Of a DNA stretch of 64,000 nucleotides, positions 3,976 through 20,812 are shown one piece after another (the stretch's first letter is position 1; every line of letters starts with the position of its first letter). The notes under the pieces are model-generated. The model made no database searches, was not told the DNA's origin, and saw only the letters and a program-made list of their open reading frames with translations. The DNA is from a candidate division WOR-3 bacterium (GTDB taxonomy: Bacteria; Hydrothermota; UBA3073): contig JAUWGP010000003.1 of NCBI GenBank assembly GCA_030606335.1, forward strand, positions 26,065 through 90,064, read 5' to 3'. Position numbers and translations under genes: made by a program.

Positions 3976-4217
3976 AATGTGCCTGTCATTGCGAACGAAC
4001 GGTGTGCATGGCAATCTCATCCCTTGTTATCAATTATTTTTGGAGTGCATTACCTTGGTAATGCAATATGGTAATCCAATTTCTTTATCACTATTACATC
4101 TAAATGAGATTGCTTCACCCGTCAATTCGTCGTACTTCTTGACGGACGACGGGCTCGCAATGACAAAAGTGAATGCCTGTCGTTGCGAGTGAACTTAGTG
4201 AGTGCAGTAATCTCATA
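3976..4217. repeat. composite dispersed repeat, copy A ('tgtcattgcgag...ggcaatctcat' family)
   Basis: gtcattgcgaacgaac...ggcaatctcat at 3985-4020, gtgcattaccttggtaatgca at 4045, and gacggacgacgggctcgcaatgacaaaagtgaatgcctgtcgttgcgag...gtaatctcat at 4150-4217. The same modules recur at 20598, 27421-27660 and 57100-57440. Confidence 0.6.
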
Positions 4218-7990: not shown

Positions 7991-8009
7991 CACATTCAAC
8001 ATTTTCCCT

Positions 8010-10229
8010 TTATCTCTCCTTCACCTCCAGTATGTACGGAATCATATATAGATACTCAGAGGAAAGGAGCGACCTAATAGACGATAAATAATTGTCTAAA
8101 TCAAATGGTGAACCCATCATGCCTAAACTAAATCCTGTCTTCGGTTTAGGATATATATCGACATCTCTTTCCTTGATATCCGCCATTCTCTGTGCCTCAT
8201 CCAGCGCATCGAGCAAGCCTCCTATTTCATCTATAAGCCCTAACTCCTTTGCCTTAATTCCACTCCATATCCTTCCCTCTCCAATGGAGTGTATATATTC
8301 TTTTGAAGTATCCCTCTCTGATGCAACAAGATTGATAAACCTATCATAATACCATTCAACAGATTTTTTGATTCTCTCACGTTCATATTCATCCCACTTA
8401 TGTATCTCAGACATTATATCTGCATGCTTACCCAATTTTACTATATCCCATGATATTCCAATTTTATCATAGAGCTCCTTAAAAATAAAGTTTATCCAGA
8501 AAACACCTATAGAGCCTGTAAGTGTAGTATTGTCTGAAAATATTTTATCCCCATATATGGATATCACATATCCGCCTGAACCTGCAACACCACCCATTGA
8601 GATTATAACAGGTTTATCCTTACTTATATCCCTTAATGCATTTGTGATTAGTTCTGATGCTAATGCATCTCCCCCACCAGAATTCACTCTCAAGACCACT
8701 GCCTTTACATCTTCATCATCCCTTATACCCTCAAGCGTCTTTACCATATCATCTGAGCCCATATAACCCTGTGATGACTTTCCCCGTATGATATTTCCAT
8801 CCGCAATAACAAGTGCTATCTTTTTCTTGCCTTTTCTCCATTCTCTTCCCACTATCTTTTCTTTTTTAAATTTTCTTGCTCCAGAACCAATAAGCGAATC
8901 CAAATCCTGTTTTTCCAGTGCGGCATCTACCAATCTCGCCTCTATTGCTCCATCACTATTAAAAAAAATGCCTTCATCAATGAGTTTTTGCAGGCTATCT
9001 GTTGACATACCCCTTGCCTCAGCGATAATCTCAATTGTAGGATAATAAACATCTTCAAGATACTCTATGATCTGAAGGCTGTCTTCCTCAGACATATCCT
9101 TTCTTTCAAATGTCTCAGGAGTAGATTTAAATCTACCTATTCCTTCAACCTGAGCCTCTACACCGATTTTTTCCATTGTTCCCTTAAAATATATCCTTCT
9201 GATCTGTATGCCAGGTATAACAACTTTTCCAACTGGATGTACAAATATTGAATCTGCTATAGATGAAAGGTATAAAGAGCCCAGACCATAAGATAGCGAG
9301 TATATGTATATTTTCTTACCACTTGCCTTAAATCGACTCAGTTCATTCCTTATCTCCTCCCATTTGCTCATATGCATCAAAGAACCTTTTAATTCCAAAA
9401 CCAGACCTTTACAGGCATCATCCTCTGAAAGTTCCTTTATCTGAGATAATAACTTATAAAAGGGTGCCTCGATCTTCTCAAACAAAAATTGACTTCTTTT
9501 AAGCTCGGGATAAGAACCTTCTATCTTTAGCTCTGCAAAGCAAGGTTTGGGTTTCATGAAGGTTGGATATTTCTCGTTTGATAGGACTAAACCTGCATTA
9601 TAAGTTTCGTTATCATCATTTTTACCATATCTGCCACCTAAACCGATATTACCAAAAGAGATGGAAATACCTGCATTCCATACATCCTCATTACCATAAC
9701 CCTCTATGAAAATTCCATCCACAGGTTCTACCTTCAATCCCACGAAATAATCCGAAGACTCATCCTCAACATTGTAGTTATAATCAAAACTTAGTGTTAT
9801 TCTATCAGTACCTGGTCTAATGCCTATACCAGACTTGAGTAAAAAATTGTCTCCTATCTTATCACCCACAAACCCAAGTGAAAGAAACCTGTGGGGTCTT
9901 ACCGTTGTTCCAATAAGGTAACCCTTTGTATCACCAAATTTGTATCCATAACCCATATGTAGCCAATTGCATATTCGAGCTCCACTTGATAGCACATAAC
10001 TTGTTTGTTCACCCCTTATAACTGTTCCAAAACCCAGATTACCAAGCGAAAGACCGATGGTATGTGAAGTATCTATATCACTAAAACTTCCAAGATAAGA
10101 TAATTCAAGCCCTGGAGATATTGCAATCCCTGACGGATTTACAAATGACGAAAACGACCTCTGAGTTGTTGATACACTTACATCAGCAAAAAGTGTAATC
10201 ACAACAGACATCAGGATGTTTACCAACAT
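8010..10229 (-). CDS. sppA: signal peptide peptidase SppA (67K type, two ClpP-like domains) fused to an N-terminal beta-rich (outer-membrane-barrel-like) domain
   Basis: C-terminal two thirds carry tandem S49 peptidase domains (VLRVNSGGGDALASE...GGVAGSGGYVIS, and a second, degenerate S49 repeat). The N-terminal ~240 aa have alternating hydrophobic and Gly/Ser/Asn-rich strands (GYGYKFG, ISISFGNIGLGGRYG). Confidence 0.8.
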   Translation of the reverse strand: MLVNILMSVVITLFADVSVSTTQRSFSSFVNPSGIAISPGLELSYLGSFSDIDTSHTIGLSLGNLGFGTVIRGEQTSYVLSSGARICNWLHMGYGYKFGDTKGYLIGTTVRPHRFLSLGFVGDKIGDNFLLKSGIGIRPGTDRITLSFDYNYNVEDESSDYFVGLKVEPVDGIFIEGYGNEDVWNAGISISFGNIGLGGRYGKNDDNETYNAGLVLSNEKYPTFMKPKPCFAELKIEGSYPELKRSQFLFEKIEAPFYKLLSQIKELSEDDACKGLVLELKGSLMHMSKWEEIRNELSRFKASGKKIYIYSLSYGLGSLYLSSIADSIFVHPVGKVVIPGIQIRRIYFKGTMEKIGVEAQVEGIGRFKSTPETFERKDMSEEDSLQIIEYLEDVYYPTIEIIAEARGMSTDSLQKLIDEGIFFNSDGAIEARLVDAALEKQDLDSLIGSGARKFKKEKIVGREWRKGKKKIALVIADGNIIRGKSSQGYMGSDDMVKTLEGIRDDEDVKAVVLRVNSGGGDALASELITNALRDISKDKPVIISMGGVAGSGGYVISIYGDKIFSDNTTLTGSIGVFWINFIFKELYDKIGISWDIVKLGKHADIMSEIHKWDEYERERIKKSVEWYYDRFINLVASERDTSKEYIHSIGEGRIWSGIKAKELGLIDEIGGLLDALDEAQRMADIKERDVDIYPKPKTGFSLGMMGSPFDLDNYLSSIRSLLSSEYLYMIPYILEVKER

Positions 10230-10268
10230 ATACCCTCCTTTGTTTATATAGTATTGTTAAAAATCTCA

Positions 10269-10558
10269 CCACAGAGAACACAGAGAATGTTAAGTATTAA
10301 GGAATTATAAAAGATTCTTCTCCCTCCCCCCTGTGGCCTCTCTATATAACCAATCCTTTGACATTTATACATAGAAATTTATAAATTAAAACAGGGATTT
10401 AAAGAGATTGAAAGAAATTCATTTTTTTAAAAATAATACATTCTCTTAAGTTCTCTTTCCATCCCTGTAAAATCATATCTGTTAGTTAACGGACATTGTC
10501 TGGAGAGCACAGAGAATTAAATTTACTCTGTGATCCGTCTGAGACGGACTGTGGTTTC
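10269..10558. repeat. MITE-like element with CCACAGAGAACACAGAGAA terminal inverted repeats, copy 2
   Basis: ccacagagaacacagagaa at 10269-10287 and the inverted copy ctctgtgatccgtctgagacggactgtggtttc at 10526-10558. The interior is shared with copy 1. Confidence 0.55.
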
Positions 10559-10732
10559 ATATTCTATTTGACACTACCAATTGTTTATATAATAAAAATC
10601 CTAACTAACCCGTATTAATAAATACGAAATTTTTCATAAAAAGTTTCACACAATTATAACCTTAAATTTTTTAAAAGTCAAGAGAAAATGATGTCCGATA
10701 GTTTGTAATAAAGTTGTTTTATATAAAAAATC

Positions 10733-10761
10733 TTGCAAAATTAAAAAATCTGTGGTATAAT
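10733..10761 (+). promoter_or_regulatory. sigma70-like promoter upstream of hsdR (TTGCAA-N17-TGgTATAAT)
   Basis: -35 ttgcaa at 10733-10738, 17-nt spacer, extended -10 tggtataat at 10753-10761, about 24 nt upstream of the hsdR ATG. Confidence 0.45.
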
Positions 10762-10784
10762 TCGTAAATTACTTCTAATAAATT

Positions 10785-13133
10785 ATGGAAAAATTTAATA
10801 TGCATCTCAGCGAAGCAGATACAAGAGCAAAATTAATTGACCCCGCTCTCCATCTTTCTGGATGGACAGAAGACCTTGTAAGACGTGAAGAAACTGAGAG
10901 AGGTATTGATATTATAGATGGAAAACCACGCAGAAGAAGAAGGGGACGAATAGATTATATTCTACGCATTAAAGTTAATATTAACTCACAACCCATCGCA
11001 GTTGCTTTAATAGAAGCTAAGAAAAGCGATAACCCACCTGATAAAGGACTCGAACAAGCAAAGAAGTACGCAAGACTAAATAACGTACCTTTTGTATATT
11101 CTTCCAATGGTCATCTCTTTGTGGAATATGACAACTTTACAGGTAAAACTTCTCACCCGAATTCTTTAGAAAAGTTTCCTACACCATTTGAACTACGACA
11201 ACGCCATGAAAAAGGGATTGGTATTTCACTTGATAAAGAAAATGCAAAGCCACTTCTTATCCCGTATCCAGGAGGTGAAGCAAGCCGTCGTTATTATCAG
11301 GATGCAGCAATTCGTGCTACACTCGAGAAAATTATACAGGGAAAAAAACGGATGCTCCTATTCCTTGCTACAGGCTCCGGGAAAACCTTCATTGCGGTTC
11401 GTCTTTTGAAGAAGATTGCAGATGCTGGGCATTTACATCGTGCTTTATTTCTTTGTGACAGGGATGAACTCCGAAATCAGGGACTTTCAGCATATCAAAA
11501 TATTTTTGGTGCTGATGCTGCTCCTGTATCTACTGCAAATCCACAGAAAAACGCAAGAATTTTAATAGCAACATATCAAACTCTTAATGTAGCAGGCGAG
11601 AACGAAGATGCTAAATTCTTACTCGATAACTATCCTGAAAACTATTTCAGTCATATAATAATCGATGAATGCCATAGGAGTGCCTGGGGTAAATGGAGTA
11701 TCGTGCTAAAAAGAAATTCCGATGCAATTCAAATAGGACTTACAGCCACTCCACGTTACTGGGAGGGTGGTAGTAAGGAGGAAAAAAAAGTAGACAAAGA
11801 GATAACTGCTAACAACCTTCAATATTTTGGCGAACCAATTTACGAATACTCAATGTCACAAGGAATTGAAGATGGTTATCTCCCTGCTTGTGAGGTGATA
11901 AGACGCGATGTGAATCTCGATATAATAGGTGTCACACGAAATGATATTAAAGTATTGGGAGCAAGAGATGCTACAACAGGTAAGCAACTTACACCCGACG
12001 AAACCCGTGAGATATACGAAGCTACATCCTTTGAGGATATTATTCAATTGCCTGACAGAGTAGAAACAATGTGTAAAGACCTTTTTAAAATGTTCCTTCA
12101 AACGGGTGGACCTCACCAGAAGACAGTTATTTTTTGTGTGCGTGATACCCATGCAGATGCCATTGCCGCTGAAATAAATAATCTTTATGCTGAGTGGTGT
12201 GATAGAAATAAGCAAAAAAGATATGAGCCTTATGCATTCAAATGCACTGCTTCTGTGGGAGGAAGCAAATATATATCAGATTTGCGTAGCTTAGAGCGAA
12301 GTCATTTTATCGCTACTACAGTTGATTTAATAACTACAGGAGTTGATATACCAATATTACGTAATGTAGTATTCTTTAGATATATCCGTTCTCCAATATA
12401 CTTTCAACAAATGATGGGAAGGGGGTCAAGAATTCATCTTCCTACAAATAAATTGATGTTTCGGGTTTATGATTATACGGATGCTACAAGACTGTTAGGA
12501 GAAGAGTTTAAGTCAAAACCCTCACCCACACGAGAAAAAAAGGAAACAGAAGAGGGAGAAAAAGAAAGAATAATCCGAGTAGAAGGATTTGATGTTCGAA
12601 TTAATCCTGCCGGAACTTATATTGTCACTGAAAAAGAAGGAAGATTATCAATGGTTACAGTAGAGGAGTACAAGCAGACTATTGCAGAGCACTTGGTTGA
12701 AAATGTTAAAACATTAGACGATCTTCGTCATAGATGGATAAATCCTGAGGAACGTGGAGAGCTTATAGATTCCCTTCCCGAAGACGGACGAGGAATAAGA
12801 ATGCTGCAGGAACTTCTTAATCGAAAAGAATATGACCTTTATGATTTAATGGCAGAAATCGGGTTTGGTGTATCCCCTAAAAGTCGTGAGGAAAGAGTTG
12901 AAGCCCTTCAATATAAACATGCTGACTGGTTTAAACATTTACCCTCAGAAACAGCAAAAACATTGTTTGCACTTGCAAGGCAATTTGAAAGAGGCGGTAC
13001 TGAAGAATTAGAAAACCCGTATGTTTTCAATGCTCCTGATGTTGTTAAAGCGGGTGGACATCAAGCTTTAAAGGTGCTTGGTGGACCAAAAGACATTATT
13101 ATTGAGATGAAAAGGAGGTTATTTGCAGCCTGA
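10785..13133 (+). CDS. hsdR: Type I restriction enzyme R subunit (EcoEI-like size class)
   Basis: N-terminal HsdR signature MHLSEADTRAKLIDPALHLSGW; helicase motif I LATGSGKT and motif II IIIDECHRS; 782 aa. Confidence 0.9.
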   Translation: MEKFNMHLSEADTRAKLIDPALHLSGWTEDLVRREETERGIDIIDGKPRRRRRGRIDYILRIKVNINSQPIAVALIEAKKSDNPPDKGLEQAKKYARLNNVPFVYSSNGHLFVEYDNFTGKTSHPNSLEKFPTPFELRQRHEKGIGISLDKENAKPLLIPYPGGEASRRYYQDAAIRATLEKIIQGKKRMLLFLATGSGKTFIAVRLLKKIADAGHLHRALFLCDRDELRNQGLSAYQNIFGADAAPVSTANPQKNARILIATYQTLNVAGENEDAKFLLDNYPENYFSHIIIDECHRSAWGKWSIVLKRNSDAIQIGLTATPRYWEGGSKEEKKVDKEITANNLQYFGEPIYEYSMSQGIEDGYLPACEVIRRDVNLDIIGVTRNDIKVLGARDATTGKQLTPDETREIYEATSFEDIIQLPDRVETMCKDLFKMFLQTGGPHQKTVIFCVRDTHADAIAAEINNLYAEWCDRNKQKRYEPYAFKCTASVGGSKYISDLRSLERSHFIATTVDLITTGVDIPILRNVVFFRYIRSPIYFQQMMGRGSRIHLPTNKLMFRVYDYTDATRLLGEEFKSKPSPTREKKETEEGEKERIIRVEGFDVRINPAGTYIVTEKEGRLSMVTVEEYKQTIAEHLVENVKTLDDLRHRWINPEERGELIDSLPEDGRGIRMLQELLNRKEYDLYDLMAEIGFGVSPKSREERVEALQYKHADWFKHLPSETAKTLFALARQFERGGTEELENPYVFNAPDVVKAGGHQALKVLGGPKDIIIEMKRRLFAA

Positions 13134-14034
13134 AAAGGAGATATTTGATTTTCTTGTTGAAAATGCAATATACCCTATGATTAGTAAGAAGGGTAAGGTC
13201 TTCTTTAAATATCCGAAGAAAGGAATGTTAACTGAGGCTAAAGCAAGAGAAATTATTGAACAATTGGATATTAAGACCAGAAATGACTGCAAAAAATTAA
13301 GGGAAAAAATCAGAAACCTGAGATCTGCATTCAGAGAAAATCGTCCTATAAGCAAATGGATTAAAGAGGAAAGACCAAGGGAGATGCTGGTTAAATACGG
13401 TCCCGAGTTCCTCCCTTTATCAAAACTTCTTGCAATAATATTAAGGATAGGAAGGGAAGGAATAAGTGCAGAAGAACTATCAAAAAGGTTATTGAATAAG
13501 TTTGGTGCATTAAGGAAAATAGATACTGCAACAATTTCTGAGATACGTGAGATAGAAGGAATAGGTCTTGCAAAAGCAGCACAAATAAAAGCTGCACTTG
13601 AACTTGGTAAAAGGCTATATAAAGAAACTGCTGTAAGGAAGAGAAAGATAACAAAACCAGATGAACTTATTGAGTATGTAGCAGAATATTACGGTCCTTA
13701 TCTAAGGGACTCTGTTAAAGAGTTTTTTTATGTCATACTTCTGGATATAAAAAATAAACCTATTGATAACGTGGAAATAAGTAAGGGTAGTATAAATGCA
13801 AGTGTGGTAGATCCAAAGGATATTGTAAAAGAAGCAACTATACGGTCAGCCTCGTCAATAATTTTGGTTCATAATCATCCATCAGGTGAGACAGACCCAT
13901 CTGAAGAGGATAAAAGGTTAACAAAATCAATTATAGATGCCTGTGAACTCATTGATATAAAGGTATTAGACCATATAATCATTGGAAAAAATCAAGAAGA
14001 CTATTTTAGTTTCGTAAAGAACGGATTGATATAA
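13123..14034 (+). CDS. radC: RadC-like JAB/MPN-domain protein with an N-terminal extension
   Basis: ERPREMLVKYGPEFLPLSKLLAIILRIGREG, HhH motif IEGIGLAKAAQI, JAMM motif LVHNHPSGETDPSEEDKRLT. TTG start with AAGGAGG 5 nt upstream; overlaps the hsdR stop by 11 nt. Confidence 0.8.
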   Translation: MQPEKEIFDFLVENAIYPMISKKGKVFFKYPKKGMLTEAKAREIIEQLDIKTRNDCKKLREKIRNLRSAFRENRPISKWIKEERPREMLVKYGPEFLPLSKLLAIILRIGREGISAEELSKRLLNKFGALRKIDTATISEIREIEGIGLAKAAQIKAALELGKRLYKETAVRKRKITKPDELIEYVAEYYGPYLRDSVKEFFYVILLDIKNKPIDNVEISKGSINASVVDPKDIVKEATIRSASSIILVHNHPSGETDPSEEDKRLTKSIIDACELIDIKVLDHIIIGKNQEDYFSFVKNGLI

Positions 14035-14050
14035 TAGAGATTATTTTATT

Positions 14051-15526
14051 ATGAAAAAATATAAAATATTCGTAAGTGGCGTTCAGAGAGAGCTCAAAGA
14101 GGAGCGGTTTGCAGTAAAAGAAATCATCACTCTGAACACTTTTTTAAAGAAATACTTTGATGTCTTTCTTTTTGAGGACCTGCCAGCCAAAAGCAAGCCA
14201 GCAGAAAAGGTCTACCTTGGAAAAGTCTCGGAGAGTGATATCCTGCTATTGTTATTGGGAAAGGAGTATGGACAACCCAGTCCTGATGGTCTTTCAGCTA
14301 CAGAAAGGGAATTTAGAAAGGCTGTGGAACGGAATTTGAAAATCCTGGTTTTTTTGAGAGGAGAAGATGACTCTACCAGAGACAGGCGGGTTAGAAATCT
14401 TATACGGGAGATAAAAAGACCGGGCAGTGGATATACTTATGATGAATTTAATGGTACGTCCGATTTAAAAGAATGTGTTTTCAATAGTCTTGTAGAACTC
14501 CTGGAGGATGATGGTATTCTTGCCAGGCTCCCCTTCGATTCTACAATTTGTGAAGAAGCAACTTATGAAGACATAAATGAAGAACTGGTAGAGAACTTCC
14601 TGAAGTATAGAGCAATAAAACTAAAAGTGGAAGTTCCTGAAATACCCATAAGAGATTTCTTAGTAAAGACTATTAAAGCGGTCCGGGAATTAGACGGAAT
14701 CTTTAAGCTAACTAATGCAGCGATTCTTTTCTTTTGTGATTATCCTCAAGAATTCATTTCTCAAAGCAGTATAAAGATAGCAAGATACAGGGGGAATTCA
14801 AGGATAGAATTTATTGACTCACAGGAACTTACTGGTCCATTCTATAAAATAATTGATGATTTAGAGATATTCTTTAAAAGAAATACCCGATTAGCCAGCA
14901 AGATTGTGGAGTTTAAGAGAGTGGATATTCCCGAGTATCCCTTTGAGGCAATAAGAGAAGGAATAGTCAATGCAATGGCTCACAGAGATTATCTCCGCAT
15001 TGGTTCTAATATTCAGATGGATATCTTTAACGATAGAATAGAGGTCACCAGCCCCGGAGGACTTCTTCCAGGGTTGGACATTAAAAATCTGGAAGGGGTT
15101 CATGAGACGAGAAACAAAAGGATTTGCAAAATCTTTCACGAAACGAAAGATATGGAAAGATATGGGACTGGTATTACTAAAATGAAGAATTGGATGACAG
15201 AACACGGTTTGAAGCCGCCAGTAATAACTCAACCAGGTGATTTCTTCAGAATTAATTTTTATGGTCCGGGTGATAAGATATTAGATTTAGTTCCCAATAT
15301 ACCCGAAGAAAGACAAACAGATTTGAAAAAATTGGGCTTAAATAACAGACAAATAGAAGCATTAAGATTGATGGTAAATGAAGGGAAAGCCTTAACAAAC
15401 AGAAAATACAGAGAATTGTTTAACGTTAGCAATCAAACATTCGTTAGAGATATGCGACTACTGTCCAAGTTGGAATTTGTCACTTCCGAAGGTAAAGGTC
15501 GGTCTTTGCAATACAAAGCAAAATAA
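14051..15526 (+). CDS. DUF4062 / AlbA_2 (divergent AAA) / HATPase_c_4 protein with C-terminal HTH (Schlafen-like 'RecG-related' regulator family)
   Basis: N-terminus KIFVSGVQRELKEERFAVKEII...ILLLLLGKEYG matches the DUF4062 pattern. The middle has AIREGIVNAMAHRDYLRIGSNIQMDIFNDRIEVTSPGGLLPG (HATPase_c_4). The C-terminus has an HTH (NNRQIEALRLMVNEGKALTNRKYRELFNVSNQTFVRDMRLL). Confidence 0.6.
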   Translation: MKKYKIFVSGVQRELKEERFAVKEIITLNTFLKKYFDVFLFEDLPAKSKPAEKVYLGKVSESDILLLLLGKEYGQPSPDGLSATEREFRKAVERNLKILVFLRGEDDSTRDRRVRNLIREIKRPGSGYTYDEFNGTSDLKECVFNSLVELLEDDGILARLPFDSTICEEATYEDINEELVENFLKYRAIKLKVEVPEIPIRDFLVKTIKAVRELDGIFKLTNAAILFFCDYPQEFISQSSIKIARYRGNSRIEFIDSQELTGPFYKIIDDLEIFFKRNTRLASKIVEFKRVDIPEYPFEAIREGIVNAMAHRDYLRIGSNIQMDIFNDRIEVTSPGGLLPGLDIKNLEGVHETRNKRICKIFHETKDMERYGTGITKMKNWMTEHGLKPPVITQPGDFFRINFYGPGDKILDLVPNIPEERQTDLKKLGLNNRQIEALRLMVNEGKALTNRKYRELFNVSNQTFVRDMRLLSKLEFVTSEGKGRSLQYKAK

Positions 15527-15527
15527 C

Positions 15528-15700
15528 AATGTCACGAAACAAGTCCAAATGTCACGAGAATGTCATGAAAAAGCATGTCACGAAAAGTGAGAGAATGTCA
15601 CGGAATGCGTCACGAAAAAAGTATCCACAAAGGTGGAAAATTAATTTAAGAAATGTCCCTAAAAATTAAAAATGTCCTTAATAATGTCCGAAATCAGTAA
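15528..15700. repeat. array of about 9 degenerate AATGTCAC / AATGTCC motifs
   Basis: caATGTCACgaaa, aaATGTCACgag, aATGTCAtgaaa, gcATGTCACgaaa, gaATGTCACgga, gCGTCACgaaa, then aATGTCCct, aATGTCCtta, aATGTCCgaaa, irregularly spaced 12-21 nt apart. Confidence 0.5.
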
Positions 15701-15767
15701 TCCTAAGATAGAACTTCCAGCAGGCTGGCGATGGGTGAGACTGGGCAAGAAGATAGAAATTTATTGA
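15684..15767 (+). pseudogene. hsdS: hsdS N-terminal remnant (27 codons)
   Basis: Encodes MSEISNPKIELPAGWRWVRLGKKIEIY*, matching the N-terminus of the full hsdS (ILPPDWRWVKLGEVCEF); ctggcgatgggtga is shared at the nucleotide level. Confidence 0.5.
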
Positions 15768-15774
15768 TTTATAT

Positions 15775-16458
15775 GTGGAGGTGTCGTTAATGCTTAATCT
15801 ACAGAGAGGAATTCCAATCGAAGATGGAGATTTGTTTATCTTAGATACAAATCCATTCAGATTTTTGTATCTGGCAGCGGAAAGCCTAATCAAAGATGCA
15901 GAGCAAGCTGCAACCAAAAATAAGCATCGGGTTGAAATTAATCATTCTATTGGAGCACTTGTGGTGCTTCTTCTATCTACCGAAGCACTCATAAACAGAG
16001 TGTATGAGTGTTTCCTTAGAAGTAAATTCCCCAGACAGATATACGAAGAGATTATGGGTAAATGGTCTCTCACAATGAAATGGTATTTTGCTCCTCTGAT
16101 TTATAAATCTGGTGGTAACAATAAAACCTTTGATGTTAAAAAAGAACCCTGGCAATCTTTTTCTGAACTGAAAAAGATCAGGGATTATTTTGCTCACCCA
16201 AAGCCAGCCCAATTTCCCTTTACAGTATTAGATGCTAAAAAAAAGATCTTGGATGTTAATGAGGGCGTTATACCAAGATGGCCCCAAACAACAATTCCTA
16301 AAGACTTGAACCATTTTCGTTGGAAGGATGCTCAAACGGTTTTGGAAATTATTAATAAAATGATTGATAAATTAGACTCCTTCATGGGGGGAACAATCAA
16401 AAAGGACGATTGGTATTTAATAGAACAAATGAGTAAATATGAAAAAGCAGCTGAATAA
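15775..16458 (+). CDS. hypothetical protein embedded in the Type I RM locus
   Basis: About 222-227 aa. GGAGG at 15777-15781 precedes the ATG at 15790; the track ORF starts at GTG 15775. No recognisable motif. The 3' end overlaps the hsdS start by 20 nt. Confidence 0.5.
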   Translation: MEVSLMLNLQRGIPIEDGDLFILDTNPFRFLYLAAESLIKDAEQAATKNKHRVEINHSIGALVVLLLSTEALINRVYECFLRSKFPRQIYEEIMGKWSLTMKWYFAPLIYKSGGNNKTFDVKKEPWQSFSELKKIRDYFAHPKPAQFPFTVLDAKKKILDVNEGVIPRWPQTTIPKDLNHFRWKDAQTVLEIINKMIDKLDSFMGGTIKKDDWYLIEQMSKYEKAAE

Positions 16459-17581
16459 AGAAATACTTCCACCCGACTGGCGATGGGTGAAGTTGGGGGA
16501 AGTATGTGAGTTTGCGTATGGTTCAGGATTACCGGTACGAGATAGATTGAAGGGTCTCATTCCTGTATTTGGCTCAAACGGTGTTATTGGTTACCATAAC
16601 ATGGCAATTACTCAAAGTCCTACAATTATAATTGGTCGCAAGGGTTCAATTGGTCAAGTGAATTCTTCAGAATCTCCATGTTGGCCAATTGATACAACTT
16701 ACTACATTGACGAATCCAAAACCTCCTGTTATCTACATTGGCTGTACTGGTTACTTAAGTACCTGAGACTAGACGAACTTAATAAAGCGACTGGGGTGCC
16801 AGGTTTGAATCGTAATGACGCCTATAGTCAAGTTATCCCCCTCCCTCCTCTTTCTGAGCAGAAGCGCATCGCTGCAAAAATTAAGGAGTTAATGCAGGAG
16901 GTAGAACATGCCCGAACAGCCTGCGAAAAGCAATTAGAGGCAGCAAAAGCCCTTCCCTCCGCATATCTGCGAGAGGTCTTTAAAAGCGAAGATGCAAAGA
17001 AGTGGGAGAGTAAGAGGTTGGGAGAGGTTTGTGAGACTACAAGCGGAGGCACTCCATATAGAGGGAATAAAGAGTATTTTGACGGGGATATTCCCTGGGT
17101 GAAATCGGGAGAATTGGAAGACAATTACATCTATGACACGGAAGAGAAAATAACAGAATTAGGTCTTAAAAATTCTAGTGCTAAAATTTTGCCTATGGGA
17201 ACATTGTTAATTGCAATGTATGGAGCAACTGTTGGAAAGTTGGGGGTCTTGAATATTTCCGCTACTACTAATCAAGCTATTTGTGCCATTATTCCAAATT
17301 CCAAAGCCTCGACCAATTTTCTCTTTTTCTTTTTCATGCATTTTAGAAGAGACCTGGTCAATAAATCTTATGGAGGTGCTCAGCCAAATATCAGTCAAGA
17401 ACTAATAAAAGAAACACACATTCCTTTTCCGTCTATAAAAACCCAGCATCGTATTGCCGCTGAACTCAAAGAAAAAAAAGCAGAGGTAGATAAACTTCAC
17501 TCATCCATTGAAAGACAATTTGAAGCAATAAACGCCTTGCCACAGGCAATTTTAAGGAAGGCATTCATAGGGAAGTTGTGA
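16439..17581 (+). CDS. hsdS: Type I restriction-modification specificity subunit (two target-recognition domains)
   Basis: Two half-repeats, each starting with a conserved motif (LPPDWRWVKLGEVCEF / ESKRLGEVCETTSGGTP), each followed by a conserved coiled-coil spacer (LPPLSEQKRIAAKI..., FPSIKTQHRIAAEL...). Confidence 0.9.
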   Translation: MKKQLNKEILPPDWRWVKLGEVCEFAYGSGLPVRDRLKGLIPVFGSNGVIGYHNMAITQSPTIIIGRKGSIGQVNSSESPCWPIDTTYYIDESKTSCYLHWLYWLLKYLRLDELNKATGVPGLNRNDAYSQVIPLPPLSEQKRIAAKIKELMQEVEHARTACEKQLEAAKALPSAYLREVFKSEDAKKWESKRLGEVCETTSGGTPYRGNKEYFDGDIPWVKSGELEDNYIYDTEEKITELGLKNSSAKILPMGTLLIAMYGATVGKLGVLNISATTNQAICAIIPNSKASTNFLFFFFMHFRRDLVNKSYGGAQPNISQELIKETHIPFPSIKTQHRIAAELKEKKAEVDKLHSSIERQFEAINALPQAILRKAFIGKL

Positions 17582-17634
17582 TGGAAATTAAACCTACTAC
17601 ATTTATCTCTGTGATATCAACAAAAATATAAGAA

Positions 17635-18702
17635 ATGAATCTAAATAAACGGTCAAATAGCTTTTCCCAAGAAAATATTACTCGCATTACAGAATTCTTT
17701 AAAAATCAGCAACTTCCTGAACCTCATTTACATCTTTTTAAGAGTGTGGTTTGGAAGGGATATCGTTGGAGAGCAATTTGGAACACTCTCCATTATCGTC
17801 CACTTCATGAAACATTTCATGAATTTATCATATATATTTTGAAAGCAACTTTTGGTGAAAAATGGCGCAAAGAGCAGATGAATTTGTCTGAAGAAGAAAG
17901 ACATATTCTTATTCGCTGGGTTAAATCTTATGGTGAATGGAAAAAAGCTACTCATAATGATGAAAAGAAAGAAGGCGAGTATATCTATGGTGCTATCCCA
18001 AGTGGTGAAGTTATGGCACTCCATTCATTTGCTTATGATATATATTGCCTCCAAGTAGTCAATAAGTTACCAAACTTCTTAGTAAATAGACTGAAGAATA
18101 AAAATGAATTCCAAGGTGCAAGATATGAAATAGCTGTGGCTGCTATTATCGCTCGAGCGGGCTTTGCTATAACCTTCCTCGATGACAAGGTTAAAAGTCA
18201 AAAGCATTGTGAATTCGTCGCCAAGAATAAATATTCTGGGTTACAAATTGGAGTTGAAGCTAAAAGTCGAAGAAGGAAAGGTGTACTCCATGAAAAAGGA
18301 AATTTGAATTACTCTTCAGTTGTAAGAGGAGACATTGAGAACCTTTTTGAAAAGGCTCTTACTCAGAGGCCCAAGAACATGCCATATTTTATTTTCATCG
18401 ACTTGAATGTAATGCCTACCCCAGACCCAGAAATTCCCCCTGACAAAAAACCATGGTTTAAGGATATAAAATTGCTATTAGATAGATATGGGATACCTTC
18501 TAAAGAAAATCCAGATCCGTTTAATGCATTGGTGTTGACTAATTTTTCTTATTATTATTTGGGAAACTTACCTATTACTCATTTGGGAGAATACGGTCTA
18601 ATCATCTCTGAAATTCCAGAATACCCGTGCAAAGATATGCAGGCTATAAGTGAAATATGGGAAAGTTTAGGACGGTATTCTCATATTCCGAAAGATGTAT
18701 AA
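17635..18702 (+). CDS. hypothetical protein between hsdS and hsdM; possible PD-(D/E)xK-like nuclease core (inference)
   Basis: 355 aa with no P-loop. The segment ARYEIAVAAIIARAGFAITFLDDKVKSQKHCEFVAKNKYSGLQIGVEAKSRRRK fits a helix-E, strand-D, strand-ExK arrangement. Confidence 0.45.
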   Translation: MNLNKRSNSFSQENITRITEFFKNQQLPEPHLHLFKSVVWKGYRWRAIWNTLHYRPLHETFHEFIIYILKATFGEKWRKEQMNLSEEERHILIRWVKSYGEWKKATHNDEKKEGEYIYGAIPSGEVMALHSFAYDIYCLQVVNKLPNFLVNRLKNKNEFQGARYEIAVAAIIARAGFAITFLDDKVKSQKHCEFVAKNKYSGLQIGVEAKSRRRKGVLHEKGNLNYSSVVRGDIENLFEKALTQRPKNMPYFIFIDLNVMPTPDPEIPPDKKPWFKDIKLLLDRYGIPSKENPDPFNALVLTNFSYYYLGNLPITHLGEYGLIISEIPEYPCKDMQAISEIWESLGRYSHIPKDV

Positions 18703-18725
18703 CCTTATACCCTAAATTATCTTAT

Positions 18726-20231
18726 ATGCGAAAAAATTCTCACAAAATAACCACACCACAATCTCTGAATGCCTATATCAAGGGTATCTGTGATATTATG
18801 CGGAGGTCGGGAAGAGCTGGGGCTCTCCAGTATGTGCCTGAACTTACCTGGATGCTCTTCCTCCGTATTCTTGATGAAAAAGAGGAGATAGAAGTAGAAT
18901 ATACTAAAGCATTAGGTAGAGAATTTATTCCTTCACTCCAATATCCATATCGCTGGCGAGATTGGGCTGCTCCTGATGGAGAAAAAAGAAAGGAATTACA
19001 AGAGGGAACATTTGGAAGATTTATGAGCTTCGTCGATGGAGACCTGCTCCCTACCCTCAAAAAATTAAAGGATAAACCTGGTGCAACTCCTCGTCAGAAG
19101 GTTGTCAGTCAAGTCTTCTCCTCTTTTGAAAAAACGGGTATTGATACCGAACGCAATCTTTTAGATATACTTGATAAAATTCATGAACTCTCCTTGGAGC
19201 AAGTTGAAGAAACCCACATGTTCACACTCTCCCAGGTCTATGAGGGACTGATACAGAAAATGGGTGAGAAAAACAACGACGGTGGACAGTTTTTCACACC
19301 AAGAGAGGTTATTCGTGTTATGGTTAAAGTGATTGACCCGAAGATTGGAGAAACCGTTTATGACCCCTGCTGTGGAACGGGTGGGTTTCTGGCTCAGGCA
19401 TATCTACATATGAATAAAAATGCAACAATAGCAGATGACATTGAAACCCTCAAGATTAGAACCTTCTACGGTAGAGAGAAAGAAAATCTTGTTTACCCCA
19501 TTGTCCTTGCAAATCTCGTGCTTCATGAGATAGATGAACCACATATATGGCATGGCAACACGCTAACAGGTCATGAGGTTTATGGTGGACTTTTCCAAAG
19601 TGCACCCGTCCTCTTTGATGTAGTCCTCACTAATCCTCCCTTTGGTGGTAAAGAGGGAAAAGATGCTCGGACTCATTTTGCCTATAAAACCAGCTCTACA
19701 CAGGTATTGTTCTTGCAACATGTCATTGATAACCTTAAAAATAGTGGCAGGTGTGGAATCGTAATGGATGAAGGTGTTTTATTCCGCACAAATGAGAAAG
19801 CCTTTGTCCAGACTAAACGCAAACTCTTGAGTGAGTGCAACCTCTATTGTATTGTAAGTCTTCCTCCCAAGGTATTCCTTAATGCTGGTGCAGCAAGTAA
19901 AACCAATCTACTTTTTTTCACTAAAGGTGAACAAACTAAAGAAATATGGTATTATGACCTATCTGATTTAAATGTAACAAAAAGGCAGCCCTTAACTATG
20001 CATCACTTTGAGGAGTTCTTTAAATTATTACCAGAAAAAAAAGAAAGTGAGCATTCCTGGAAGGTTCCAATAGAAGAAATAGAAGAGAAAAATTACGACA
20101 TAAAAGCAGTAAATCCAAACAGAAAAATCGAGGAAGACACAAGAAGCCCGCAAGAGCTATTAGCAATTATTGAGTCCCAGCAAAAAGAAATCACAAACGC
20201 ATTATCAAAATTGAAAGATAAAGGCTTGTGA
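18726..20231 (+). CDS. hsdM: Type I restriction-modification N6-adenine DNA methyltransferase subunit
   Basis: HsdM N-domain (GALQYVPELTWMLFLRILDEKEE), GTGGFL SAM-binding motif, NPPFGG catalytic motif. The start is taken at the ATG at 18726, after the stop of the upstream gene. Confidence 0.9.
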   Translation: MRKNSHKITTPQSLNAYIKGICDIMRRSGRAGALQYVPELTWMLFLRILDEKEEIEVEYTKALGREFIPSLQYPYRWRDWAAPDGEKRKELQEGTFGRFMSFVDGDLLPTLKKLKDKPGATPRQKVVSQVFSSFEKTGIDTERNLLDILDKIHELSLEQVEETHMFTLSQVYEGLIQKMGEKNNDGGQFFTPREVIRVMVKVIDPKIGETVYDPCCGTGGFLAQAYLHMNKNATIADDIETLKIRTFYGREKENLVYPIVLANLVLHEIDEPHIWHGNTLTGHEVYGGLFQSAPVLFDVVLTNPPFGGKEGKDARTHFAYKTSSTQVLFLQHVIDNLKNSGRCGIVMDEGVLFRTNEKAFVQTKRKLLSECNLYCIVSLPPKVFLNAGAASKTNLLFFTKGEQTKEIWYYDLSDLNVTKRQPLTMHHFEEFFKLLPEKKESEHSWKVPIEEIEEKNYDIKAVNPNRKIEEDTRSPQELLAIIESQQKEITNALSKLKDKGL

Positions 20232-20239
20232 GATATAAT

Positions 20240-20451
20240 ATGATAAAATCTAACCCTTTCACTCCAAAGTCTGGTTTGGAGCAGAAAATCTTTTTCAATA
20301 GGGAAGATGAGATAAAATTGCCGATATTGAGATAAAAAGTTTGAATGTTTATCTTCGTAGGTTGGTAGAGAAAGAAATCTTAATTGGTGTTAGGCGTGGC
20401 GAATATAAATTAAAAGACATTCTATTGTGTGAATACCTGAGAAGAAAATAA
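20240..20451 (+). pseudogene. degraded remnant of an AAA-type (PF01637-like) ATPase gene
   Basis: Frame A encodes MIKSNPFTPKSGLEQKIFFNREDEIKLPILR*, the characteristic NPF.P...FxxREDEI N-terminus of 'archaeal-type' ATPases. A second frame at 20353-20451 encodes LRRLVEKEILIGVRRGEYKLKDILLCEYLRRK*, a wHTH-like C-terminus. The body of the gene is missing. Confidence 0.3.
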
Positions 20452-20812
20452 CAAAAATTACAAATCAAGCCTAATGTTGTAATTTCTGTAATTTTGGATA
20501 TAGAATTCTTAGGGATCGTAGGGTCAAGTCTCAACATAAGACATTTTTATTGGCGAGGGAAGTTCGGTGGCGGGGTACTCCAACGAGAGCTGTAATTTGA
20601 GTGCATTACCTTGGTAATGCAAGTGGGCGGTAGCAAGCTATTGCAATTCTTAATCTCTAAGATAGATTTTATTTAATAAAAAGGAAATATTAATAGGGAT
20701 TACAATTAGAAAGATAAACTTCTTTTGGTAAGACTAATGGGGGTCAGTTCTTGGCACACTCCAAAGAAGTTTTAATAGCACTGTAGAAATTAATCAGTAT
20801 TAGGATATAGAT

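Follow-up and report, generated by a model that had tools for sequence, protein, structure and literature searches.

We found that a small gene of an unannotated family, here called X, lies in a type I R-M operon of a candidate division WOR-3 bacterium between a short 5′ stub of hsdS and an intact hsdS, whose start it overlaps. The overall reading that we favour, and hold to be probable, is that the stub is the displaced start of the operon's resident hsdS, that X arrived on a block imported via the conserved N-terminal region (NCR) of hsdS, and that X is likely a HEPN RNase partner of the R-M enzyme. The analysis covers a stretch of 64,000 nucleotides (the window, W), to which coordinates refer unless another locus is named; the loci compared with it carry L numbers.

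The operon is of type I, encoding HsdR, HsdM and an HsdS with two TRDs (Pfam ResIII/EcoEI_R_C, N6_Mtase/HsdM_N and Methylase_S twice), and hsdR, hsdS and hsdM are all intact around X. A complete hsd operon also surrounds X in L001/L009, and L004 shows hsdR and hsdS. In the window, hsdM is followed by a Fic gene, and a sigma-70 promoter scan of 15300-18800 returned no plus-strand promoter. The longest hsdM ORF begins at 18657 and would overlap the 355-aa cargo gene; we favour a start near ATG 18726, because hsdM homology to the closely related locus L024 (see below) begins at 18735.

Features of the operon around gene X, in window coordinates (host or cassette origin and the function of X are as proposed in the text)
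Feature	Position	Strand	Remarks
hsdR	10785-13133	+	first gene of operon; Pfam ResIII, SWI2_SNF2, EcoEI_R_C, HSDR_N
RadC/JAB cargo gene	13123-14034	+	Pfam; between hsdR and hsdS
491-aa DUF4062 + HATPase_c_4 cargo gene	14051-15526	+	Pfam; between hsdR and hsdS
hsdS 5′ stub	15672-15767 (ATG 15684 alternative)	+	31 codons, MSLIMSEISNPKIELPAGWRWVRLGKKIEIY and stop
Stub 5′ half, putatively host-derived	15672-15724	+	start codon and first ~17 codons of the presumed displaced resident hsdS
Crossover core CTGGCGATGGGTGA (proposed)	15725-15738	+	inside stub; codons for WRWV
Stub tail (putatively cassette-derived) and spacer	15739-15789	+	RLGKKIEIY, TGA 15765-15767; GGAGGTG 15777-15783
Gene X	15790-16458	+	222 aa; predicted HEPN fold, unannotated family, putative RNase
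Rx4H motif codons of X	16180-16197	+	R131-D-Y-F-A-H136
hsdS, intact	16439-17581	+	380 aa, two TRDs; Pfam Methylase_S x2
355-aa cargo gene	17635-18702	+	no function in libraries; between hsdS and hsdM; segment differing from L024
hsdM	18726-20231	+	Pfam N6_Mtase, HsdM_N

The cargo genes of the operon vary between loci. For the 355-aa gene, Pfam, PADLOC, NCBIfam and PHROGs gave no match, and none of the fetched loci has a homologue. Its slot between hsdS and hsdM is taken by an unrelated 223-aa ORF in L024 and by Mrr_cat, 296-aa ORF and PIN genes in L001/L009, which suggests a second site of variable cargo in the operon. Residues ~160-390 of the 491-aa protein match pAgo-associated models of PADLOC (Aga_SIR2-PNTD1-PNTD2, E 4e-17; pAgo model PDLC02394, E 7e-17); the gene is probably one more defence-related cargo gene within the hsd operon. 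The protein is only 39-41% identical (amino acids) in L004, and in L016 (positions 1-330) its gene has apparently been cut to a short C-terminal fragment right after RadC, with stub, X and hsdS kept. Directly after the stop of the 491-aa gene, six copies of (A)TGTCACGA occur within ~90 nt (15529-15617), where 5 of the 11 window-wide matches to this word with at most one mismatch cluster. At the equivalent position other loci (L016 ~225-300, L004 ~4030-4150, L001 ~2810-2860, L008 ~70-140) have short repeated words of their own: TGGCTCG; AAACCAGACA plus AAATGCGCA; ATGAGCC; GTTCAA/TTGAAC. These short repeats may be putative operator sites that co-vary with a candidate C-terminal DNA-binding domain of the upstream protein.

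The origin of the stub is best seen from an empty site. By scanning species-representative genomes with the HsdR of the window we found L024, a WOR-3 MAG contig (JAGMCL010000052.1) whose HsdR is 97% identical at the amino-acid level. At the nucleotide level L024 is ~93% identical to window positions 7993-15735, the segment with RadC and the 491-aa gene included (about 93%), and to 18735-20504 on the hsdM side (92.8% from 18735). Between these matching stretches L024 has an intact 401-aa hsdS, followed by the 223-aa ORF, and lacks both X and a counterpart of the 355-aa gene. The L024 hsdS begins MSVIMSEISNHQTELPGGWRW, which shows the stub sequence to be the genuine 5′ end of the hsdS resident in this lineage. 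The initial annotation had described the stub as an hsdS remnant beside an inserted unknown gene and had proposed comparison with relatives lacking that gene; on this comparison the stub is a genuine hsdS 5′ remnant, since its sequence opens the intact hsdS of the near-isogenic L024, and X lies on DNA foreign to the resident hsdS. The annotated stub ORF of 27 codons plus TGA (15684-15767) exists as described, but is better taken as 31 codons, because the orthologous L024 hsdS starts at the upstream ATG.

Homology of L024 to the window ends at 15735, inside GGCTGGCG(A/G)TGGG. Upstream of the core, the 5′ half of the stub (15672-15724) is 87% (46/53) identical to L024, 58% to L004 and 53% to L016. 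The tail and spacer (15739-15789) are 98% identical to L004, 88% to L016 and, at 24%, unrelated to L024. Since the 5′ half matches L024 and the tail matches L004 and L016, the stub is a chimera with its crossover in the motif. As judged from these alignments, it is a resident hsdS start joined to an imported tail, and not a copy of the downstream hsdS. The window and L024 hsdS genes have unrelated TRDs, and their conserved regions are about 80-82% identical, against 93% for the backbone.

A second hsdS 5′ stub is present upstream of hsdR in L024 (9784-9860, MSLKMSEISNHWTKLIRGWRWVSL...) and in L004 (45-125, MSQKISEMNNSQSKLPPGWRWVNLNTN and stop), in both cases just upstream of a promoter-like TTGCA-N17-TATAAT that precedes hsdR. 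The L024 stub falls within a segment absent from the window (L024 8550-9929), which also contains an ORF of 150 aa and a piece similar to the C-terminal end of the 491-aa protein. In L024, hsdR, RadC and the 491-aa gene are thus flanked by a direct repeat of 75 nt (81%).

Within the window, the exact 14-mer core of the stub recurs at 16477-16490, in the 5′ end of hsdS, and with up to 2 mismatches it has 3 matches against 0.16 expected. A 25-nt pattern with three variable positions has exactly two sites, the stub and hsdS, against 0.00 expected in 100 shuffles. The search for flanking direct repeats suggested in the initial annotation yielded one of 33 nt at 82% (15713-15745 and 16465-16497), direct and not inverted. 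The similarity, thus, is not confined to the 14-nt core, the case in which the remnant reading was to fall: it spans 33 nt, and the 25-nt pattern is far above background. Over 36 positions the stub shares 27 with its own hsdS, 28 with that of L016, 28 with that of L025 and 27 with that of L024. Being no nearer to its own hsdS than to others, it resembles the latter through a conserved N-terminal motif, LPxxWRWVxLG, and not as a local copy. Concerted evolution or local duplication was accordingly rejected, as identity of the stub to its own hsdS is not clearly above that to other hsdS genes; the permutation value (p = 0.04) is driven by one GC-rich locus, and the window ranks third.

Between 15651 and 15690, AAATGTCC occurs three times in 40 nt, the last two copies giving the two alternative ATGs of the stub; relatives, too, have repeats of their own start word of hsdS (ATGAGCCAAA) ahead of the stub. 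Within X, at 16193-16209, the core recurs in inverted orientation (15/17 nt); this was dismissed as coincidence, as the codons for AHPKP explain the match and synonymous sites are not conserved.

The arrangement of stub, X and hsdS recurs in L016, L004, L008/L014, L012, L001 and L015, that is, in at least six lineages besides the window, which contradicts the idea of a local one-off event. The stub is an intact ORF in the window, in L001/L009 (X 65% identical to that of the window), where its stop overlaps the start of X (ATGA in L001), and in L015 (X 56%). It carries a CGA>TGA stop in L004 (X 88%) and L016 (X 92%) and a TGG>TAG stop in L008/L014 (X 73/70%), has no start codon in L012 (X 70%), and is absent from L011 and L010 (X 59% in each). 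In 8/8 lineages that keep hsdS, X immediately precedes this gene, with an overlap or a gap of at most 8 nt, and the contigs of X homologues are type I operons with variable cargo around X. Several arrangements and junctions were found in independent assemblies, and assembly chimeras are therefore unlikely. In L010 (339-1760) the hsd locus is degenerate, with an hsdR reduced to an 84-aa fusion of N- and C-terminal parts, no hsdS and a C-terminal relic of hsdM; X is intact there, with its Rx4H motif, despite this decay.

Comparison of X with its surroundings points to mobility. The blastn blocks in common with the window begin at 15723/15724 in L004, L008 and L014, and their right ends fall at 16486-16510. 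For L004, L016 and L008 the shared block stops at 16510, TRD1 is unrelated in every other locus, and the first ~24 hsdS codons (to about 16510) belong to the block travelling with X. Identity of this block to other metagenomic loci is 98% in the tail and 92-96% in the gene. Synonymous divergence is far lower in X than in its neighbours: between the window and L004, dS is 1.85 for hsdR and 0.245 for X; between the window and L012, 1.83 for RadC and 0.61 for X; between the window and L001/L003, pS is 0.85-0.88 for hsdR and hsdM and 0.55 for X. GC3 of X is 29-38% in every locus, and that of neighbour genes reaches 46-65%. Together, these sequence comparisons demonstrate the mosaic structure, the empty site and the breakpoints, and show X to be horizontally mobile among type I R-M operons, on the evidence of divergence and composition.

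Three other accounts of the stub were weighed against this evidence. That it is a chance short ORF sharing a 14-nt core with hsdS could draw on its length of merely 27-31 codons and on the shortness of the exact identity. Two occurrences of the 25-nt pattern where none is expected, the orthology of the stub to the start of the intact L024 hsdS and the homologous stubs in six other lineages leave this account practically no probability, and we take it as refuted by the pattern statistics and the L024 orthology. The stub might instead be a functional upstream ORF or leader peptide that drives or couples translation of X, or regulates the operon, as the intact frame in W, L001 and L015 and the overlap of stub stop and X start in L001 would allow. 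Such a role is very unlikely given the in-frame stops in L004, L016 and L008/L014, the missing start codon in L012 and the lack of any stub in L011 and L010; in the window, moreover, X begins 22 nt past the stub stop with a Shine-Dalgarno sequence of its own.

The remaining account is a vertical one: an ancestral tandem pair of hsdS genes had X between them, the upstream copy was once deleted down to the stub, and everything since has been vertical descent with ordinary TRD swapping, with no cassette mobility. Homology of the stub tail and junction across lineages is what one ancestral junction close to the NCR/TRD1 boundary would leave, and type I loci often have hsdS in duplicate (PMC7394358). 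Vertical descent is, however, hard to reconcile with a synonymous divergence of X several-fold under that of the flanking hsdR, hsdM and RadC, with its uniformly low GC3 in higher-GC hosts, with a stub whose 5′ half tracks the host (L024) and whose tail tracks the donor (L004), and with a 93%-identical relative that has an intact hsdS at the site. We consider this account improbable.

In the import that we prefer, the stub would be the displaced 5′ end (start codon and NCR) of the operon's original hsdS. The left crossover would have occurred by homologous recombination inside the NCR core CTGGCGATGGGTGA, joining the resident 5′ end to an imported block made of three parts: a short dead hsdS tail, then X and the ribosome-binding site belonging to it, and last a new hsdS start and NCR overlapping the end of X. 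As the block carries a replacement hsdS start, hsdS would stay intact and be co-expressed with X, to which it is probably translationally coupled. In the window the exchange would have run right to the hsdM start, bringing another hsdS body and another cargo gene with it. The unit of NCR tail, X and hsdS start with NCR, about 790 nt (15724-16510), would behave as a cassette that moves between type I R-M operons of differing host GC without a dedicated recombinase, the NCR, at which TRD1 exchange also has its left boundary, serving as a portable homology handle. Each transfer would remake the stub from the recipient's hsdS start, after which it would decay, so that stubs are fresh in some lineages and decayed in others.

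Of the two possibilities raised in the initial annotation, insertion into an ancestral hsdS 5′ end was right in essence, but the event was no simple insertion that duplicated its target: the hsdS downstream is another allele, whose 5′ end travels with X, and everything from the motif up to the start of hsdM has been exchanged, including the cargo gene between hsdS and hsdM. Half-gene shuffling holds only in so far as the crossover falls in the conserved N-terminal region, which is likewise a boundary of TRD1 exchange. The statement that no recombinase is nearby agrees with our scan, which found none among large ORFs (≥260 aa) within about 8-10 kb on either side. The block ends have neither terminal inverted repeats nor a short exact target duplication. 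The locus, thus, does not look like a transposon or IS insertion, the flanking repeats being 33 nt long, 82% alike and coding, with neither recombinase nor terminal inverted repeats found; nor does it look like a shufflon or inverton, as the stub and hsdS repeats are direct and no recombinase was found.

The route of recombination was likely general homologous or microhomology-mediated. Homology at the core is only about 15-35 nt, short for RecA, which counts against the proposed recombination. The direction of change may be read either way: an incoming hsdS recombining at the stub NCR could equally have restored the L024 hsdS and deleted X, so that the difference would be a loss in L024 and not a gain in W. 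A right boundary at the NCR is equally expected from ordinary TRD1 swapping, so that the cassette may not run strictly from NCR to NCR.

The product of X had been annotated as a 227-aa ORF 8 nt after the stub. An ORF from GTG 15775 does exist and follows the stub closely, but the gap is 7 nt and the real start is ATG 15790, giving 222 aa, because homologues with a full N-terminus align there and a Shine-Dalgarno sequence (GGAGGTG) lies 6 nt upstream. The annotated 20-nt overlap of the X 3′ end with hsdS is exact. Eleven homologues are mostly 210-222 aa long (range 164-231). The family is rare: close homologues form only 11 clusters among 5.8 billion, an exhaustive HMMER search gave 80 representatives of the wider family, and a scan of GTDB representative genomes and IMG/VR found no relatives. 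The 223-aa ORF of L024 was considered as a divergent X and rejected. X is under purifying selection (dN/dS 0.22-0.37). Distant relatives (42-34% identity) occur in non-defence contexts with no R-M linkage; within the family, the clade embedded in R-M operons forms a specialised branch.

X itself had no Pfam match even at E≤10 and none in PADLOC, NCBIfam or PHROGs, and a family-profile sequence search of the PDB returned only noise. In an alignment of 53 family members the only invariant columns are R131 and H136, of the motif RDYFAH; the family consensus is IRNxxVH, an Rx4H motif, and E65, N69 and E126 are near-invariant. With the deeper family alignment, AlphaFold gave a model of pLDDT 92.3 (62 in a first AF2 run on 12 close homologues only). 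X thus has the conserved Rx4-6H motif of HEPN proteins and is predicted to form an all-alpha, up-down helical bundle matching solved HEPN domains, with extra N- and C-terminal elements and a beta-hairpin insert in the family; Foldseek ranked HEPN domains first, at a level that is not significant. Distant relatives recurrently match PF18735 (RiboL-PSP-HEPN) at E 0.002-0.1, under the 28.4-bit cutoff, and no Pfam HEPN model reaches its gathering score. We conclude from the model and the motif that X is a predicted HEPN-fold protein of a previously undescribed, unannotated family. Its Rx4H site and predicted fold make it most likely an RNase.

The literature documents both HEPN families within R-M operons and the PrrC guard model (PMC3710099, PMC12707154). 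By analogy, and because X is co-expressed with HsdS, we infer that X may act as a second-line, abortive-infection-type partner of the R-M enzyme, a PrrC-like guard. On control by the R-M complex the indirect evidence is mixed: linkage to hsdS is conserved, but the intact X of L010 speaks against a protein unleashed simply by R-M loss. The lack of a regulatory NTPase domain in X likewise counts against plain release on loss of the R-M enzyme. X might instead assist or regulate HsdS or the methyltransferase without catalysis (as an assembly, specificity or restriction-alleviation factor), or be an addiction toxin unrelated to phage sensing. The tight, conserved coupling of X and hsdS, the persistence of X after hsd decay in L010, the family members outside R-M contexts and the lack of an ATPase or sensor domain and of any PADLOC model match all fit such roles. 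They are nonetheless unlikely, since Rx4H, the sole invariant feature over 53 diverse sequences, is the catalytic HEPN RNase signature (PMC3710099) and the dN/dS of X is above that of hsdR, as is typical of conflict genes.

The import of a candidate HEPN RNase as set out above has several implications. It would add a rare, unannotated HEPN family to the accessory RNases riding in R-M operons, with X as a candidate minimal PrrC-like second defence line that works without an ATPase regulator. The empty-site comparison suggests that the hsdS N-terminal region can be a crossover point for importing whole non-hsd genes and not just TRDs. Import of this kind would explain dead hsdS 5′ fragments in genomes, and the order of hsdS stub, ORF and intact hsdS offers a possible route to more R-M-linked cargo genes. 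A bolder extension makes the hsdS N-terminal region a universal, recombinase-free docking site at which self-contained cassettes, in the window a minimal HEPN RNase gene with a replacement hsdS start, hop among the type I operons of unrelated bacteria and leave these operons functional, adding translationally coupled guards that sense inhibition of the R-M enzyme. We offer this only tentatively and regard it as rather doubtful; if true, hsdS 5′ stubs without a gene of their own, such as the ones ahead of hsdR in L024 and L004, would be footprints of a general exchange of cassettes within R-M loci.

Among known systems, PrrC/EcoprrI and the stand-alone HEPN families found within R-M loci come closest by function. 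PrrC, in the EcoprrI type IC locus, is held to be a latent RNase kept by the R-M enzyme and freed when phage anti-restriction disables it (PMC3710099, PMC12707154, PMC1484252); like X, a putative RNase, PrrC and RloC are HEPN-type RNases encoded inside type I hsd operons. X differs from PrrC in having 222 aa with a single HEPN-like domain and no ABC-ATPase/NTPase motif, hence no N-terminal ABC-type NTPase, in the lack of detectable sequence similarity, in lying upstream of hsdS and overlapping it, in an hsdR-first operon with an EcoEI-type HsdR C-terminus, and, unlike a PrrC guard, in surviving hsd decay in L010. Abi2/AbiD/AbiF and ApeA are likewise small HEPN proteins with Rx4-6H in R-M neighbourhoods (PMC3710099), and RiboL-PSP-HEPN (PF18735) is the weak Pfam match that recurs among distant relatives of X. 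The X family, by contrast, scores below the Pfam gathering thresholds and has its extra terminal elements and beta-hairpin insert, and its close clade, the one linked to R-M, is of great rarity, with 11 clusters in 5.8e9.

By mechanism, the closest is TRD reassortment, or 'domain movement', in hsdS, which also uses a conserved-region crossover flanking TRD1, needs no site-specific recombinase and yields new alleles (PMC3077401, PMC3874165, PMC7394358). Known cases swap TRDs within hsdS genes; the exchange in the window, in contrast, brings in an entire non-hsd gene and leaves the N-terminal region in duplicate, with one of the two as a dead stub. Integron cassettes and Campbell-type integration similarly place a promoterless gene at a fixed conserved site between flanking direct repeats, with downstream expression kept. 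The window, however, has no integrase, attC or attI, its repeats are coding sequence of the target gene and about 82% alike, and the X block presumably moved by general homologous or microhomology-mediated recombination, unlike integrons. A HEPN gene embedded in an R-M operon is thus of a known kind, and what is modestly new is a whole accessory gene travelling between hsdS N-terminal repeats.
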